From: an uncultured bacterium | Lineage (GTDB): Bacteria; Zixibacteria; MSB-5A5; JAABVY01; JAHJOQ01 | Length of the DNA: 50,824 bases | Assembly: GCA_965369655.1 (NCBI GenBank) | Contig: CBDUQR010000019.1 | Coordinates: 1 to 50,824 of the forward strand | Reading direction: 5' to 3' | Part shown: piece after piece, positions 6,225-12,431 of the stretch | Position numbering within the stretch: position 1 is the stretch's first letter | Layout: every line of letters starts with the position of its first letter | Position numbers and translations under genes: made by a program | Notes under the pieces: generated by a model | What the model saw: only the letters and a program-made list of their open reading frames with translations | Database searches by the model: none | What the model was told of the DNA's origin: nothing

Positions 6225-6839
6225 CTACATTCTTCTGAGCAACCCGACTACTTTGCCCGCAATATAGAATCGCGGTGTGTCATGCTCGACGATGATCGGT
6301 CCGAAAGCATCATTCTCCGGTTCGAGCCTGACATGGTCCGCTTCCGGATAGAATCTCTTCACGGTCGCCTCATCTCCTATCACAGCTACGACAATGTCAC
6401 CCTTTTCGGCTGTGCCCTGTTTCCGAACGACGACAAAATCGCCGTCTGCGATACCGGCCCCGACCATGCTCTTCCCCACGACGCGGAGCGTGAAAGTCTC
6501 ACCGGATGGGACGAACGAGGTATCGACTGCAATGCTGCCTTCGATATTCTCATCGGCCAGCAGCGGTGCACCTGCCGGGACAGATCCGACCAGCGGAAGC
6601 TGCCGCACTGTGGTAAGCATACCCTCTGCGAGCTCAATCCCCCGGGAAACAAGCGGTGTTTTCCTGATGTAGCCTTTCTTTATAAGGGCGCTCAGGATCG
6701 AGCGAACACCGTTGGTCGACCTGATTGAAAACCGCTCTCCGATCTCGCGAATCGTGGGCGGAGCGCCCTTCTCACGAATACTCCGTGATATGAAATCGAA
6801 TATGTGTCTCTGCCGGTCTGTCAGCTTTGCCTTTGTCAT
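6225..6839 (-). CDS. lexA: SOS repressor LexA
   Basis: wHTH LT.RQ...PPTIREI; VPAG cleavage site; catalytic Ser (GKSM) and Lys (TVKR). Confidence 0.97.
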   Translation of the reverse strand: MTKAKLTDRQRHIFDFISRSIREKGAPPTIREIGERFSIRSTNGVRSILSALIKKGYIRKTPLVSRGIELAEGMLTTVRQLPLVGSVPAGAPLLADENIEGSIAVDTSFVPSGETFTLRVVGKSMVGAGIADGDFVVVRKQGTAEKGDIVVAVIGDEATVKRFYPEADHVRLEPENDAFGPIIVEHDTPRFYIAGKVVGLLRRM

Positions 6840-6892
6840 ACAACCACTCCTTCATACAATCACACCCGAGGCTAAGAGCGCATGGTATCATC

Positions 6893-6990
6893 GTCGCAAG
6901 GAGTTCGCCACAGGCGGACGACGTGGCGATCTCATCTCCTGGCTATCCTGCGAGAGATTGCCACGCTCCCTCAGGTCGCTCGCAATGACA
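6893..6990. repeat. Palindromic repeat (GTCATTGCGAG...GTGGCAATCTC family) in the lexA leader
   Basis: GAGATTGCCACGCTCCCT...CGCTCGCAATGACA; inverted partial copy at 30055-30091. Confidence 0.7.
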
Positions 6991-7015
6991 GCACAGTGTA
7001 ACGGTTACTCGATAT

Positions 7016-7095
7016 TGCACATCTGTTTCCTTCTTCAACACACCTCGATCATTGGTGCACAAACATACAGTAGTGCACATTTGTATCTCTGTCAA
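7016..7095 (-). promoter_or_regulatory. lexA sigma70 promoter with three candidate LexA boxes
   Basis: TTGACA (7095-7090)-N17-TACTGT (7072-7067); TGCAC-N4-RT motifs at 7016, 7056 and 7074. Confidence 0.7.
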
Positions 7096-7261
7096 GAGAA
7101 AAAACATGTCTGTGAATCATTTTCTTACGACCTGCGGTCGATACAACCATCGAAATCAATCTTAGCTATGGACATAAGTGATTTTGGACTTATATTTAAC
7201 TATTCTGATTGTCGATTGTATAAGTACTAATTGACTCCTCAATGGAGACACAAGAACCGGC

Positions 7262-8011
7262 ATGATAAAGCAAATTACTGCAACACTCGGATTGACAGCG
7301 CTGATCCTCCTGACTGCGGCGACAGGAGACTGTCTCGCACGCTATGGAGGCCGGGCGGTCATGCGGGAGTCGGGCTTCGACTTCGGCAAGACGCCGCAGG
7401 AATCGAAGGTGACGAAGAAGTTCTTCATCGTAAACGAAGGGACTGATACCCTCCGAATCATCGATATCAAACCCGGGTGAGGATGCACCAAGGCTCCAAT
7501 CTCAAAGGAGCTGATCGCTGTCGGCGACAGCGCGGAAATCGAACTGATCCTGGGTACAGGGAGAAAGAAAAACTTGTACAGCAAGTCGGCGAAGATAATC
7601 ACGAGCGACCTGCTCAACCGCACGATGTCATATAAAGTCAAGGCTTACATAGTTCCTGAGAAGTCCCCGACCTCTCCGGTGGTCTGTTTGCCGAGAAAGC
7701 TCAATCTGACGACCGACGATATTGGCACGCCGCAGAAAATCACCATCAAGAGCGTGACTGTCGATTCGCTCGACCTGGAAATCGTCTGGTTTGACGACGA
7801 TTATCTTGATGTGAAGCTGCCGAAATCTCGTATCGGCCCGGGTGAGTCGATCGACGTAATTGTCGAGATCAGGAAAGACCGGGAAAAGGAGATATTCGCC
7901 AAGTCGTTTACGATCAGGACAGGAGATAAAGAAGGGACCAGATTCACAGTCCCTGTGAAAGTTACGCCCGCGAAAAGAGTCGGAGGCAAGTCAAGATCGG
8001 GAGGGGGATGA
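7262..8011 (+). CDS. Exported DUF1573-like tandem Ig-fold protein, candidate selenoprotein (249 aa; UGA 7478-7480 = residue 73)
   Basis: ORFs 7262-7480 and 7574-8011 are one frame broken only by TGA in IKPG*GCTKAP; FDFG motif; signal peptide. Confidence 0.85.
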
Positions 8012-8102
8012 TTCCGATCGCCATCGGAATGACTGCCCCGCACATACATTGATCGAAATCAGGCAGACTGCTGAATAGACTTGACATGATGGAGGTGGCA
8101 CA

Positions 8103-8897
8103 TTGAAACGCTACGTGACACTATTTTATCTTACGCTGTTTCTAACAACGGTGGCTTCTGCCGGAACGCCGGTCGAACCTAAGACCGTGTCCGAGACGAC
8201 TGGTGATTACACCGCAGGGAGGCTTTTCTTCCCAGAACTCGAATTCGATTTCGGCTATGTTCCACAGAACGGGTCCGTGAGCCATTCGTTCTGGCTCCTC
8301 AACAAGGGGACCGACACCCTCGAAATCATCCAGGTCAAACCCGGGTGAGGCTGCACTAAAGCGCCTCTGACGAAGAGGCTGATCGCTGTCGGTGACAGCG
8401 CAGCAATTGAACTGGTTTTTTCGACAGGCAAACGCCGTGGCAGACAGAACAAATCAGCCACTGTGATAACGAGCGACATTACGAAGGGAAATACCAAGCT
8501 GAGGCTTTTCGCAGACGTCTATCCTATGGATGAACCGGTTGCCCCGGTTGTCATAGAGCCGCCTGTCATAGAGTTTGACAAAGACAAAGTAAAAGGGCAA
8601 CATACTATTACTGTAAAGAGTGTGTCCGATGTTCCACTCACTCCAAAACTGGTTGCAGGTCCTGAAACCGACTTCATCATCGATCACAGCGGTAAGCCGA
8701 TCAAGCCGGGCGCCGCGACTGGGATGACCGTGAGGCTGGCGGACGACTACGAACCGCGAATCATCAAGAAATCGTTCACGTTTGAGCTCGATGATGCGAA
8801 GCGGACGCGATTCACGATACCTGTTCGGACGGTGAAACCAAAGACGAACCCCCTGCAGCCCTCCAGCCCGGCTGCGAGAAAAACGGGAGGCATGTAG
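8103..8897 (+). CDS. Exported DUF1573-like protein, candidate selenoprotein (264 aa; UGA 8346-8348 = residue 82)
   Basis: Continuous frame VKPG*GCTKAPLTKRLIAVGDSA; GGAGG RBS; signal peptide. Confidence 0.85.
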
Positions 8898-8926
8898 ACG
8901 AACACGTCCACGAATAATCAAAGACC

Positions 8927-8959
8927 TTGACATTCACGATCAATCTGGTATGTTATAAT
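8927..8959 (+). promoter_or_regulatory. Putative sigma70 promoter for the third DUF1573-like gene
   Basis: TTGACA 8927-8932; extended -10 TGTTATAAT 8951-8959 (or TATGTT 8949-8954). Confidence 0.55.
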
Positions 8960-9018
8960 ATTAATTTGTACTTGCATCCTATGCTAAAGGTATTTTCACA
9001 TATAGGAGTCGGCGAAGT

Positions 9019-9939
9019 ATGAAAAGAGTAGTATTATTGGCTTTACTTGTAGTCGTGGCCTTTGTGGCATTCTCTGTCCTTCACAACCGGGCAATATCTG
9101 ATCCGTCTAATCTGGAGAACAAGATAGCGTCGACGTCATCGGCCAAGAGTTCGACTACTCAGCCGAGGGGAAAAGCCGAGGAAGAGAGTCCGTATGTCAA
9201 CGGCAAAGCAAACTTTCTCGAGAAAGCGTTCGACTTTGGTTACGCCCCGACGAACAGCACGGTCTATCACCCTTTCTACGTCATCAATGTCGGGTCCGAC
9301 ACGCTCGACATTGAAAAAGTCAGGCCTGGCTGAGGCTGCACACAGGCGCCGCTTGATAAGCGGTACCTCGCTGTCGGTGACAGCGCACAGATTGGAATAA
9401 GCCTCAGGGTCAGCAGGTCTGCCAGGCATTTCACGAAATCACCACGGGTGATCACCAGCGATCCTGAGAACAAGCAGACTTCGCTGAAACTGTCCGTGGA
9501 CGCCGTAGCTGCGTTCGATACCACTATGCCCCTGACGATAATACCGGAGAGAATCGGCATTCCTCCTGAGAGGAAAACCGACTGGTTCCGTCTGGCTGTG
9601 AAGAACATATCGAATCAGTCGCTTTCGCCGGAAGCGATTTTCGTTCCGGACGACATCGTAGATATCGAATTCCCCGGCACGATCGAGCCAGGCGAAGAAG
9701 CTGCGATCCTTCTGAAGGTTAGAGACGAATTCAAATGGAAGAATCATAAGACATCCTTTACGTTCGCGATGTCCGACGAGAATTCTACGAGGTTCACGAT
9801 CCCGATCGAAATCGGCACTTTCATCAAATCAAAAGCAAAACCGCCGAAGAAACCGACATCGGCTTCATCGACGCCTGCAGAGCAGGAAGGCAAGAAACCG
9901 ATTCGTCCGACAGGCTCAAAGGGGAACGGATCGAAATAG
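9019..9939 (+). CDS. Exported DUF1573-like protein, candidate selenoprotein (306 aa; UGA 9331-9333 = residue 105)
   Basis: Continuous frame VRPG*GCTQAPLDKRYLAVGDSA; AGGAG RBS; signal peptide. Confidence 0.85.
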
Positions 9940-10067: not shown

Positions 10068-10946
10068 ATGATGTTACGCAGAGCATATACTACGGCTAAG
10101 GGATTTCTATCGCATTATTTTGGAGGATTGTATCGAAATGCCGGAGAGCATCATGTGTTTCTCTTCGCGGGCGGTCTCTCCTTCTCTCTCCTGCTCTGCA
10201 TCCTGCCTCTGGTATTGATCGTTTTTTCTATCATCGGGCTTCTGCTGGAGAAGACAACTGTCTCGACTGAGATTTCGCTGTTCATACATAACCTGATTCC
10301 GTATGAGACCCACGCTGACTATGTCGAGCAGGCGGTCCTGTCCAGGGTAGAGGAGTTCACGCTCTTCAAAAGCATCGCAGGACTTCTCGGCATGGTCGGG
10401 ATTCTCTTTGCCGCCAGCGGCCTGTTCAGCAGCATGAGGACAGTGCTGAACACGGTGTTTAAGATCAGCAGCACTCAGTCGGTCTATGTGAGCAAGCTTC
10501 GTGACATTGGATTAGTGCTGATAGTCGTTGTTTACTTCCTCCTTTCGACGACCCTGCTGCCATTGCTCTCGATATTCGAGGAGATGGCCGGCAGGACCGA
10601 GTCACTGAGCATGTTTGACCTGGCTTCGTTCGCCGATCTTGTGCTTGAAATACTCTCGGTAGTGCTGATCTTTGCCGTTTTCTACACGCTCTACTATCTT
10701 GTGCCGCAGCAGAGGATGTCGAAGCGGGTTGTGTTCATCAGCGCATTATGGTCATCGCTGTTGTGGAAACTGGCCGAGAGAGGATTCGAGTATTACATCA
10801 CGAGTGTTGCGACGCTTACACGCGTATATGGCGCGTATTCGCTTGTGATTGTTATCGCGCTCTGGATCTACTACACATCGATCGTGTTCATACTCGGCGC
10901 AGAGATCGGACAGTTGTACAAGGAACGACGTGTTCGCAAGGCGTAA
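10068..10946 (+). CDS. YihY/virulence factor BrkB family membrane protein
   Basis: Multi-TM; A..LSF..LL...P and YG.Y..VI...LWIY...I.ILGAE motifs. Confidence 0.9.
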   Translation: MMLRRAYTTAKGFLSHYFGGLYRNAGEHHVFLFAGGLSFSLLLCILPLVLIVFSIIGLLLEKTTVSTEISLFIHNLIPYETHADYVEQAVLSRVEEFTLFKSIAGLLGMVGILFAASGLFSSMRTVLNTVFKISSTQSVYVSKLRDIGLVLIVVVYFLLSTTLLPLLSIFEEMAGRTESLSMFDLASFADLVLEILSVVLIFAVFYTLYYLVPQQRMSKRVVFISALWSSLLWKLAERGFEYYITSVATLTRVYGAYSLVIVIALWIYYTSIVFILGAEIGQLYKERRVRKA

Positions 10947-11189: not shown

Positions 11190-12227
11190 TTAACGATCGT
11201 CGCGGCTCCAGCGTCCACTGATACATACGATCTCTGGGTAGTTCCTGCACCACTCCAGTATTTTGTCTCGCTCGATCAAGTCTAACTCATGAGGCATGTG
11301 GGCTCGGAATTCTTTCTTGGCATTACTCGATACATACGAACTTGTAGCGAGGATTACTTGTGACGCTTTTCTAATCTGTCGGGTACCGATGAGTGCGCGG
11401 ATTTTCGCAGGCGGAACCTTATAAGGGGGCGAATAGCATTTCGCCTCTATGAGGTGGCGAGTCTCTGTAAGTCCGAGCTTTCGCAGAGCAATAATATCAT
11501 ACCCGCCATCGCGCGTTCTGGCTGTCAACTCAACTTCAAACCCAAAGGAAGCAAACATCTCAGCGATCAGTTCCTCGAACTTTCGCGAGTTCATCTGGTG
11601 AAGTAAGGCTGGATTTGCGACGATTGCTTTCATAATCTCGTCCCAGACAGCGGAGACTCTTACATCAATCCTCCCTTCTGTCGGAGCATCCGCTTGCGAC
11701 ACAGACACCCAACTCAACAGCCAGCATATTGCTTCAGCCATCTGACCTACTCCAAAACCTTTTTCGTCAAGTACAGGTGTCCCCGTTAAGTGAGTAAAAA
11801 ACGCTTCAAACTGCGACATCCCAAGTCTATTGAGTGCGCGATTTACATCCTCTTTGGACGTCAATCGCATCTTAAGATCATCAGGTAAGTCAGAACGAAC
11901 AACTCTTGATCTCCCTGGAACAGCAGCCGTCAGTTGGCCTTTTGGACCCCAATAGAGAATTGGTACTGCTGGAATGCTATGGATTGCGGGTGATCGAATA
12001 TCGATGACTATGCCATGCAACTCCTCATTGGATTCCTCAAGAACAACCTGAAACAATCCAATGTCTGAGACTCTTCTCAATTCGGTCCCGGGCGGAATCA
12101 TGTAATTGCTGACCGCATCCCCGATCAATTTCCATATGTGATCTGGGGGATTAACGACAGCCAGGAGATACCGAGTAGAAGTATCACCAACCTTGAGATC
12201 GCCGGTAGAATCGTGCATCGTGGACAT
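11190..12227 (-). CDS. Protein with C-terminal Mrr-like (type IV) restriction endonuclease domain
   Basis: FEELIAEMF..GF.VELT..TRDGGYDIIA...IEAK catalytic motif; start uncertain. Confidence 0.8.
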   Translation of the reverse strand: MSTMHDSTGDLKVGDTSTRYLLAVVNPPDHIWKLIGDAVSNYMIPPGTELRRVSDIGLFQVVLEESNEELHGIVIDIRSPAIHSIPAVPILYWGPKGQLTAAVPGRSRVVRSDLPDDLKMRLTSKEDVNRALNRLGMSQFEAFFTHLTGTPVLDEKGFGVGQMAEAICWLLSWVSVSQADAPTEGRIDVRVSAVWDEIMKAIVANPALLHQMNSRKFEELIAEMFASFGFEVELTARTRDGGYDIIALRKLGLTETRHLIEAKCYSPPYKVPPAKIRALIGTRQIRKASQVILATSSYVSSNAKKEFRAHMPHELDLIERDKILEWCRNYPEIVCISGRWSRDDR

Positions 12228-12431
12228 TCTCCCAGTAAATCTAAATATATAAGTAATGAATCTACATTTGACAATTCTTTTCATACAGCCACCAATTGCA
12301 CTTGCGACGTTTTCTAAGTTGATGCCTGCTGATAGAAGCCTTTAGCAATCCAACCCGGGAGTCGTGAAAGCGGCTCCCGTTTTTTTCAATCGCGATATGG
12401 ATTGCAAATACTGAGAGCGCGAAAGTGGCTG

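Follow-up and report, generated by a model that had tools for sequence, protein, structure and literature searches.

The question that this locus raises is whether three tandem genes, each cut by a single in-frame TGA, are damaged or are decoded with selenocysteine (Sec, U). The genes lie at positions 7262 to 9939 of a stretch of 50,824 nucleotides (nt) from an uncultured Zixibacteria bacterium (forward strand of contig CBDUQR010000019.1, GenBank assembly GCA_965369655.1), and this whole stretch is referred to below as the window. A first-pass annotation, made from the letters alone, had proposed them as a candidate array of exported DUF1573-like selenoprotein genes. Our analysis supports that interpretation, and we found no sign of what the annotation had named as speaking against it, namely a lineage without Sec machinery, homologues lacking Cys at the position, TAA or TAG there in relatives, or separate translation of the two halves. 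Predicted from the genes alone, the three are very probably genuine selenoprotein genes of the DUF1573/OS_HP2 kind, because UGA stands at the first Cys of an invariant C-G-C-T motif, the genome holds the full Sec machinery, and a structured RNA element just downstream is nearly confined to sites with UGA. The genes and their Sec codons are as follows.

7262-8011, plus strand: gene 1, predicted exported two-domain DUF1573 selenoprotein of 249 amino acids, Sec at residue 73, TGA stop at 8009-8011
7478-7480, plus strand: Sec codon UGA of gene 1
8103-8897, plus strand: gene 2, predicted exported two-domain DUF1573 selenoprotein of 264 amino acids, TTG start, Sec at residue 82
8346-8348, plus strand: Sec codon UGA of gene 2
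9019-9939, plus strand: gene 3, predicted DUF1573 selenoprotein of 306 amino acids with an N-terminal hydrophobic anchor and a low-complexity linker, Sec at residue 105
9331-9333, plus strand: Sec codon UGA of gene 3

Gene calling with translation table 11 returns six short open reading frames, so that pipelines would split the genes; as had been proposed, these join into three continuous frames of the lengths listed, each open save for one TGA. The codon has a common PG-U-GCT context in all three (IKPG-U-GCTKAP, VKPG-U-GCTKAP and VRPG-U-GCTQAP for genes 1-3), and every frame carries the FDFG motif. A signal peptide had been claimed for each product. Inspection by eye agrees for genes 1 and 2, whereas gene 3 begins instead with a hydrophobic anchor that is followed by a low-complexity linker. 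The paralogues are indeed well diverged, with pairwise identities of 31-39%. In a scan with hidden Markov models, the DUF1573 model PF07610 matched genes 1-3 with E-values of 5.6e-19, 2.7e-21 and 5.1e-15 (68.4, 75.8 and 55.7 bits; gathering cut-off 26.1 bits), and each match spans the TGA. The model PF22544 (HYDIN/VesB-like Ig) matches the same stretch of each protein. Scanning for promoters and terminators gave nothing above shuffled background.

The window is contig C19 of an assembly of 2.99 Mb in 100 contigs that is 99.5% complete, and this assembly encodes the machinery for Sec decoding. Matches to selA (512 bits), selB (329 bits) and selD (402 bits) all exceed their cut-offs. The selA gene adjoins selB and the gene for tRNA-Sec on contig C17, while selD lies on C13. 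The tRNA-Sec scores 74 bits, again over the cut-off, has the anticodon UCA according to ARAGORN, and is the sole UCA tRNA among the 44 of the genome. Elsewhere UGA is an ordinary stop, as had been noted: TGA ends 660 of the 1438 stop-to-stop frames of at least 300 codons, is the commonest stop, and also terminates gene 1. Since TGA is the commonest stop and UCA is found only on tRNA-Sec, a changed genetic code is excluded; reading of UGA as Trp or Gly, or by a near-cognate tRNA, has nothing specific in its favour, would have to contend with homologues that have Cys and not Trp or Gly at the position, and is in our judgement extremely improbable.

The same genome offers an internal control. Two tandem, near-identical genes on contig C33 (10160-12043, minus strand; L087 is 11243-12043) contain an in-frame TGA in the context FTFV-U-PTEL, and the read-through protein is a peroxiredoxin of the AhpC/TSA family (E 6e-36) with U at the peroxidatic position. 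The UGA is followed by a stem of 8 base pairs (bp) with a GGUC loop that starts at nt 21, counted from the U of UGA, and this hairpin fits the published model of the bacterial selenocysteine insertion sequence (bSECIS). Judged from their sequence, the peroxiredoxin genes thus show Sec decoding elsewhere in this genome. The selD product has an N-terminal class-V aminotransferase domain (NifS/cysteine desulfurase-like or selenocysteine lyase-like) fused to it in one 751-residue frame (L009:1402-3654, C13, minus strand). Downstream of another in-frame TGA, PHIV-U-AEF on C11 (56673-57008), stands a 9-bp stem whose GGU loop starts at nt 21; the frame has no family match, and the arrangement may be due to chance. 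A crude scan of the genome for further in-frame TGAs gave 750 and then 492 candidates, most of them neighbouring genes that share one frame, and among those tested two were false and two had no family match. The FdhA-type and FlpD-type genes contain no in-frame TGA.

We then considered the position of the TGA in homologues. A scan of one genome per species yielded 17 related loci, the best from metagenome-assembled genomes (MAGs) of Candidatus Zixiibacteriota at 69% identity, followed by two MAGs labelled Ignavibacteria and then by Krumholzibacteriia and Latescibacteria. Instances of the motif were counted where an FDFG-like motif lay upstream, in the window and 46 loci, some of which repeat the same genomes. 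The tabulation that the annotation had suggested gave 42 TGA, 24 TGC, 6 TGT and no TAA or TAG among 72 instances; once identical sites were removed, 35 unique Sec sites and 28 unique Cys sites remained. The C-G-C-T motif that had been named for DUF1573 was recovered as well: in an alignment of 48 proteins the invariant residues are G51, G69, L73 and U/C82-G83-C84-T85 in the numbering of gene 2. The array itself is conserved, with three TGA codons at one related locus (L025) and the order TGC-TGA-TGA at two others (L026 and L027). A fourth paralogue in this genome, on contig C6, is of the Cys form (AACGCT).

The survey was extended to a phylum set of 285 genomes (Zixibacteria-like MAGs), 198 of them of high quality. 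Relatives of gene 2 at E <= 1e-5 are present in 282 of the 285, with 1-7 matches each and 1096 in total. Among the 150 matches listed, a count by eye found a single internal TGA in 90, none in 56, and TAG or TAA in 4; one of these four (L049) has TGC at the motif position, so that its stops lie elsewhere. The pattern CCNGGNTGAGGNTGYAC, for P-G-U-G-C-T, occurs at 288 sites in 239 of the 285 genomes (171 of the 198 of high quality), and the reversed-pattern control gave about 7 matches by eye; the frequency of PG-TGA-GCT is far beyond chance. When TAA and TAG were sought in the same motif, 11 matches were found against about 20 in the control, and none of the 8 inspected lies in a DUF1573 frame. 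A match to selA was detected in 264 of the 285 genomes and in 193 of the 198 of high quality. Its co-occurrence with the TGA form is not discriminating, as selA is also found in families without that form. Five genomes with the TGA form and no selA match were checked, and three of them have a tRNA-Sec over the cut-off; in one genome with tRNA-Sec (G281) selA is cut by a contig end.

These counts bear directly on whether the TGAs could have come from nonsense mutation or from errors in sequencing, or whether the halves could be made as separate proteins. The six-frame gene call would lend itself to such a reading, but we consider it virtually impossible, and the annotation had already called three independent nonsense mutations implausible. 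The same codon recurs in the same motif at all of those sites; the Pfam domain and the invariant G-C-T pass over the TGA without a break; the residues that immediately follow the TGA are the best conserved in the family and have no start codon ahead of them; and a SECIS element is linked to the TGA.

That element consists of two hairpins, which follow the UGA in each of the three genes.

7492-7512, plus strand: hairpin 1 (proposed spacer hairpin) of gene 1, GGCUCC/GGAGCU
7516-7532, plus strand: hairpin 2 of gene 1, CGCUGUC-GGC-GACAGCG, loop 42 nt past the UGA, encoding AVGDS
8363-8379, plus strand: hairpin 1 of gene 2, GCCUCU-GACGA-AGAGGC
8384-8400, plus strand: hairpin 2 of gene 2, CGCUGUC-GGU-GACAGCG
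9344-9368, plus strand: hairpin 1 of gene 3, AGG.GCCGCUU-GAU-AAGCGGU.CCU
9369-9385, plus strand: hairpin 2 of gene 3, CGCUGUC-GGU-GACAGCG

Hairpin 1 begins 13-17 nt past the UGA and varies in sequence among the three genes while its pairing is kept. Hairpin 2 has the form CGCUGUC-GGY-GACAGCG in all three, with a 7-bp stem and the loop 42 nt after the UGA, and its codons specify A-V-G-D-S. The Cys-form homologues served as a control, as they encode nearly the same peptide and have no need of a SECIS. Over the unique sites (35 Sec and 28 Cys), the mean folding energy of the hairpin 1 region is -10.4 kcal/mol in Sec forms versus -5.4 in Cys forms, and that of the hairpin 2 region -10.2 versus -6.2 kcal/mol. 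In a fixed register, 93% of the hairpin 2 cells are paired in Sec forms and 56% in Cys forms. Covariation is seen at the lowest base pair of hairpin 2, which is C-G in 21 sequences, U-A in 9 and A-U in 1. Hairpin 1 attains at least 6 contiguous pairs at 29 of the 35 Sec sites and at 3 of the 28 Cys sites; its register shifts between genes, and 25 different 5' arm sequences were seen. At 30-31 of the 35 Sec sites AVGDS is written with the fixed codons GCT GTC GGT GAC AGC, whereas the Cys forms mostly have APGDS or AVNDS with mixed codons, and the valine of AVGDS thus appears to be dictated by RNA structure.

Across the phylum set the exact core of hairpin 2, CTGTCGGNGACAG, stands at the fixed distance behind 227 of the 288 TGA sites, in 203 genomes, with no control match, and behind only 4 TGY sites in all 285 genomes. 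The four Cys-form genes that carry it (G078:C3:399671-399729, G186:C70:18696-18754, G192:C275:3630-3688 and G281:C77:10346-10404), some of them also with hairpin 1, look like holders of a relic SECIS left by recent Sec-to-Cys changes.

Several observations weigh against this account of the genes and their RNA element. The exact core is found in none of the 29 genomes of families f16-f18 and in 6 of the 20 of family f14. Six Sec sites from families without the core were added to the comparison, which raised the number of Sec sites to 41. Three of them, from f16 and f17, share with locus L028 a second variant, in which a long spacer hairpin precedes CCAC-GGUC-GUGG and the loop lies 53 nt past the UGA, and the Krumholzibacteriia and Latescibacteria forms have CCCUCCU-GGUC-AGGAGGG with the loop at 39 nt. 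With all variants counted, a GG-loop hairpin of at least 5 pairs lies at 39, 42 or 53 nt, and never at 16-37 nt, at 37 of the 41 Sec sites versus 1 of the 28 Cys sites; the remaining 4 of the 41 have no uninterrupted GG-loop hairpin. When single sequences were folded and compared with shuffles, genes 1 and 3 were unremarkable (z -0.37 and -0.82) and gene 2 gave z -2.44, so the evidence for the SECIS is comparative and does not come from single-sequence folding. In the genomes G273 (100% complete) and G148, which have the TGA form, neither selA nor a tRNA-Sec over the cut-off was detected, and their TGA-form genes carry the hairpin 2 core; beyond gaps in the assemblies we cannot explain this. 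Finally, the NCBIfam model NF041425 (OS_HP2) scores genes 1-3 at 60.4, 70.5 and 66.9 bits, under its curated cut-off of 100, and by the NCBI threshold the three are related to that family but are not members of it. Some folds showed an alternative long-range pairing between nt 5-12 and nt 47-54; its variable positions lack matching changes by eye, and it was set aside.

Which of the two hairpins would be bound by SelB is a separate question. According to excerpts of a review, the bSECIS model requires a loop of 3-9 nt whose first two positions contain a G (usually G-G/U), a stem of 4-16 bp and a distance of 16-37 nt from UGA to loop, and some genes misfit this model and may form distinct classes (PMC13188914). 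No single hairpin of the array satisfies the whole model, and this also counts against our account: hairpin 2 has the G-G/U loop but at 39-53 nt, while hairpin 1 is correctly spaced, yet its first two loop nucleotides include a G at only 17 of 31 sites. The array resembles the bSECIS consensus in having an intragenic stem-loop downstream of the UGA with a small apical G-G/U loop, a stem of 5-7 bp and an energy below -7.5 kcal/mol. It differs in the distance of that loop, 39, 42 or 53 nt, and in the second, covarying hairpin that fills the gap.

Hairpin 1, with its loop about 17-25 nt past the UGA, might itself be the operative SECIS, and hairpin 2 an accessory pause site or stabiliser or a structure conserved for some other reason. 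Hairpin 1 meets the published rules of spacing and stem, covaries, and is present in the canonical interval at 31 of the 35 Sec sites versus 7 of the 28 Cys sites. Its loop sequence is not conserved, however, whereas the invariant GG(U) or GGUC loop sits on the distal hairpin in three sequence variants and matches that of the peroxiredoxin SECIS in the same genome, and we regard hairpin 1 as an unlikely SECIS. Because hairpin 2 has the GG(U/UC) loop in common with the peroxiredoxin SECIS, it is probably the SelB site, and hairpin 1 a spacer.

If hairpin 2 is the binding site, SelB carrying Sec-tRNA(Sec) would dock on its apical GG(U) loop. Hairpin 1 would fold away the 20-25 nt of protein-constrained sequence that separate the UGA from hairpin 2. 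Folding places the two ends of a hairpin next to each other, which would bring the base of hairpin 2 near the point where a canonical SECIS stem starts, and that base would then be next to the mRNA entry site while the UGA is in the A site.

The proteins were examined for hints of their function. An AlphaFold2 model of gene 2, built from the 48-member alignment, has a predicted local distance difference test score (pLDDT) of 91.3 and a predicted template modelling score (pTM) of 0.80. It contains an N-terminal helix (residues 2-17) and two beta-sandwich domains (about 47-140 and 149-244), with U-G-C in the loop after the strand 73-80. The model agrees with the Ig fold that had been suggested, in the form of two predicted Ig-like domains whose best fold matches are of the HYDIN/ASH type. 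Foldseek found ASH-type Ig domains of HYDIN and the central apparatus (E 7e-13), 2qsv from P. gingivalis, CEP192 and VesC, with query-normalised template modelling scores of about 0.34. The sequence of gene 2 had no match in a search of the PDB, and a look-up in the ESM Atlas was empty. All members of the family end in a low-complexity tail rich in Pro, Lys and Gly, often closing with GG followed by H, S, M or K; in the window these tails are at 7960-8008, 8840-8894 and 9820-9936, and relatives have them likewise.

The products would be exported, those of genes 1 and 2 by way of a cleavable signal peptide and that of gene 3 with its N-terminal anchor. Proteins that act on thiols outside the cytoplasm give a precedent: the N-terminal domain of DsbD is an Ig-fold periplasmic thiol-disulfide carrier, and redox motifs of the C-x-C kind are found in the tail of Erv2 and in Mia40. 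The likeness to DsbD, an extracytoplasmic Ig-like fold with a closely spaced redox-active pair, is one of analogy only, and no sequence relationship or specific fold relationship was found between DUF1573 proteins and DsbD, Erv2 or Mia40. By this analogy U-G-C could well form a selenenylsulfide that takes part in thiol/disulfide exchange in the envelope, a proposal to which we give a little less than an even chance. It gains nothing from the structural comparisons, in which a profile search of the PDB found relatives of domain 2 only (2qsv at E 5e-6, and HYDIN) and no solved structure covering the motif; the fold and the structure matches give no functional clue. Nor is there a functional hint in the neighbours of the array and the related loci, which include no redox or metal partner.

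Binding of a soft metal such as copper by U-G-C, with the proteins acting as envelope metal chaperones or scavengers, is the principal alternative. Several of the prokaryotic selenoproteins catalogued in reviews handle metals, as excerpts of these describe (PMC9312934 and PMC13188914), and gene 1 has a very weak match to copper_res_A (E 0.0017). With 16.9 bits against a cut-off of 479, that match is far below threshold and lies in domain 2 rather than at the motif, and neither in the window nor in the other loci that were inspected does a copper or other metal gene adjoin the arrays. Metal binding is therefore rather unlikely, and thiol/disulfide exchange is the role that we retain.

Phylogeny and gene order bear on how the array arose. 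A quick maximum-likelihood tree was built from the 48 proteins, and in it each gene of the window falls in its own clade of four rows together with the matching genes of three other loci (L026, L027 and L045), with a support of 99 in the Shimodaira-Hasegawa-like approximate likelihood ratio test (SH-aLRT). Of the four members of the gene 1 clade, two have Sec and two have Cys, and the Sec/Cys label requires 11 changes on the tree, at least 4 of these being forced by well-supported branches. Since the genes of the window group with their counterparts and not with one another, the triple array is older than the family, and Sec and Cys have replaced each other repeatedly. The three genes would then be old paralogues that inherited the codon and the SECIS by duplication, rather than the products of three independent mutations. 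The immediate neighbours of the array in the window are as follows.

6225-6839, minus strand: lexA, the divergent upstream neighbour, which adjoins the array in closer relatives
10068-10946, plus strand: membrane protein of the yihY/BrkB family, the downstream neighbour in the closest relatives

The lexA gene, with dinB behind it, is separated from the array by a spacer of 422 bp (window 6225-7261), and this adjacency is kept within the same family and order. In loci less closely related to the window, the family's genes have as neighbours those for a GWxTD-domain protein, an alpha/beta hydrolase and a PALP enzyme. The Cys-form paralogue on contig C6 (L020:366-2124) lies 25 nt behind a gene for such a PALP enzyme, which resembles cysteine synthase and cystathionine beta-synthase, and a PALP gene adjoins related genes in 6 loci among L029-L035, including those of Krumholzibacteriia and Latescibacteria. 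The window also contains a gene for an IS630-like DDE_3 transposase and one for an Mrr-type restriction endonuclease (80-1105 and 11190-12284).

Taken together, the observations lead us to a composite proposal that we offer tentatively and hold to be somewhat less probable than not. The array would represent a distinct bacterial SECIS class in which the GG(U) loop has been displaced to 39-53 nt, as the codons after Sec are fixed by the protein, and in which a freely covarying spacer hairpin restores the geometry. The RNA would in turn dictate protein sequence, A-V-G-D-S in Sec forms versus mostly A-P-G-D-S in Cys forms, and the clade would be the signature selenoprotein of its phylum with a redox role in the envelope. 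If true, this is a clean natural case of RNA structure limiting the choice of amino acids, and search models would need widening, as a distal GG loop behind a spacer hairpin is outside the spacing that SECIS predictors allow. In practical terms, about 290 genes in about 240 genomes of the phylum have probably been split by gene callers, and NF041425, which would rescue them, gives the proteins of the window scores under its cut-off. The presence of the family in 282 of the 285 genomes, with at least one Sec copy in most, points to an important envelope chemistry and provides a handle on the role of DUF1573.

Whether the family was already catalogued as a selenoprotein had been left as a question by the annotation, and the answer is that it has been since 2007-2008, as excerpts of the literature record; it is not a new family. 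Symbionts of Olavius yielded the prediction that OS_HP2 is a selenoprotein, with 2 Sec sequences (Zhang & Gladyshev 2007, PMC1976440, in excerpt). In the accessible parts of a 2008 study of the Global Ocean Sampling (GOS) data, OS_HP2 is equated with pfam07610 and listed as UxC with 2 Sec versus 354 Cys sequences (PMC2398784), and excerpts of reviews of 2022 and 2026 list a 'DUF1573 domain-containing protein' with UGC (PMC9312934, PMC13188914). No function for DUF1573 was given in the literature that our search returned, and in the portions of text that it reached, which did not cover supplementary lists, there was nothing on the SECIS, the arrays or the phylum-wide spread of this clade. What is new beyond the literature found is the conserved triple array of old paralogues, the occurrence in nearly all genomes of one phylum and the two-hairpin SECIS with its distal loop. 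The proteins of the window share with OS_HP2, as excerpted, the Pfam domain, Sec at the first Cys of C-G-C (listed as UxC or UGC) and a large number of Cys homologues. They differ in adding a second Ig-like domain, a low-complexity tail and a conserved triple array, in scoring under the NF041425 cut-off, and in belonging to a Zixibacteria-like lineage, whereas the first OS_HP2 proteins were described, according to those excerpts, from deltaproteobacterial symbionts and ocean samples.

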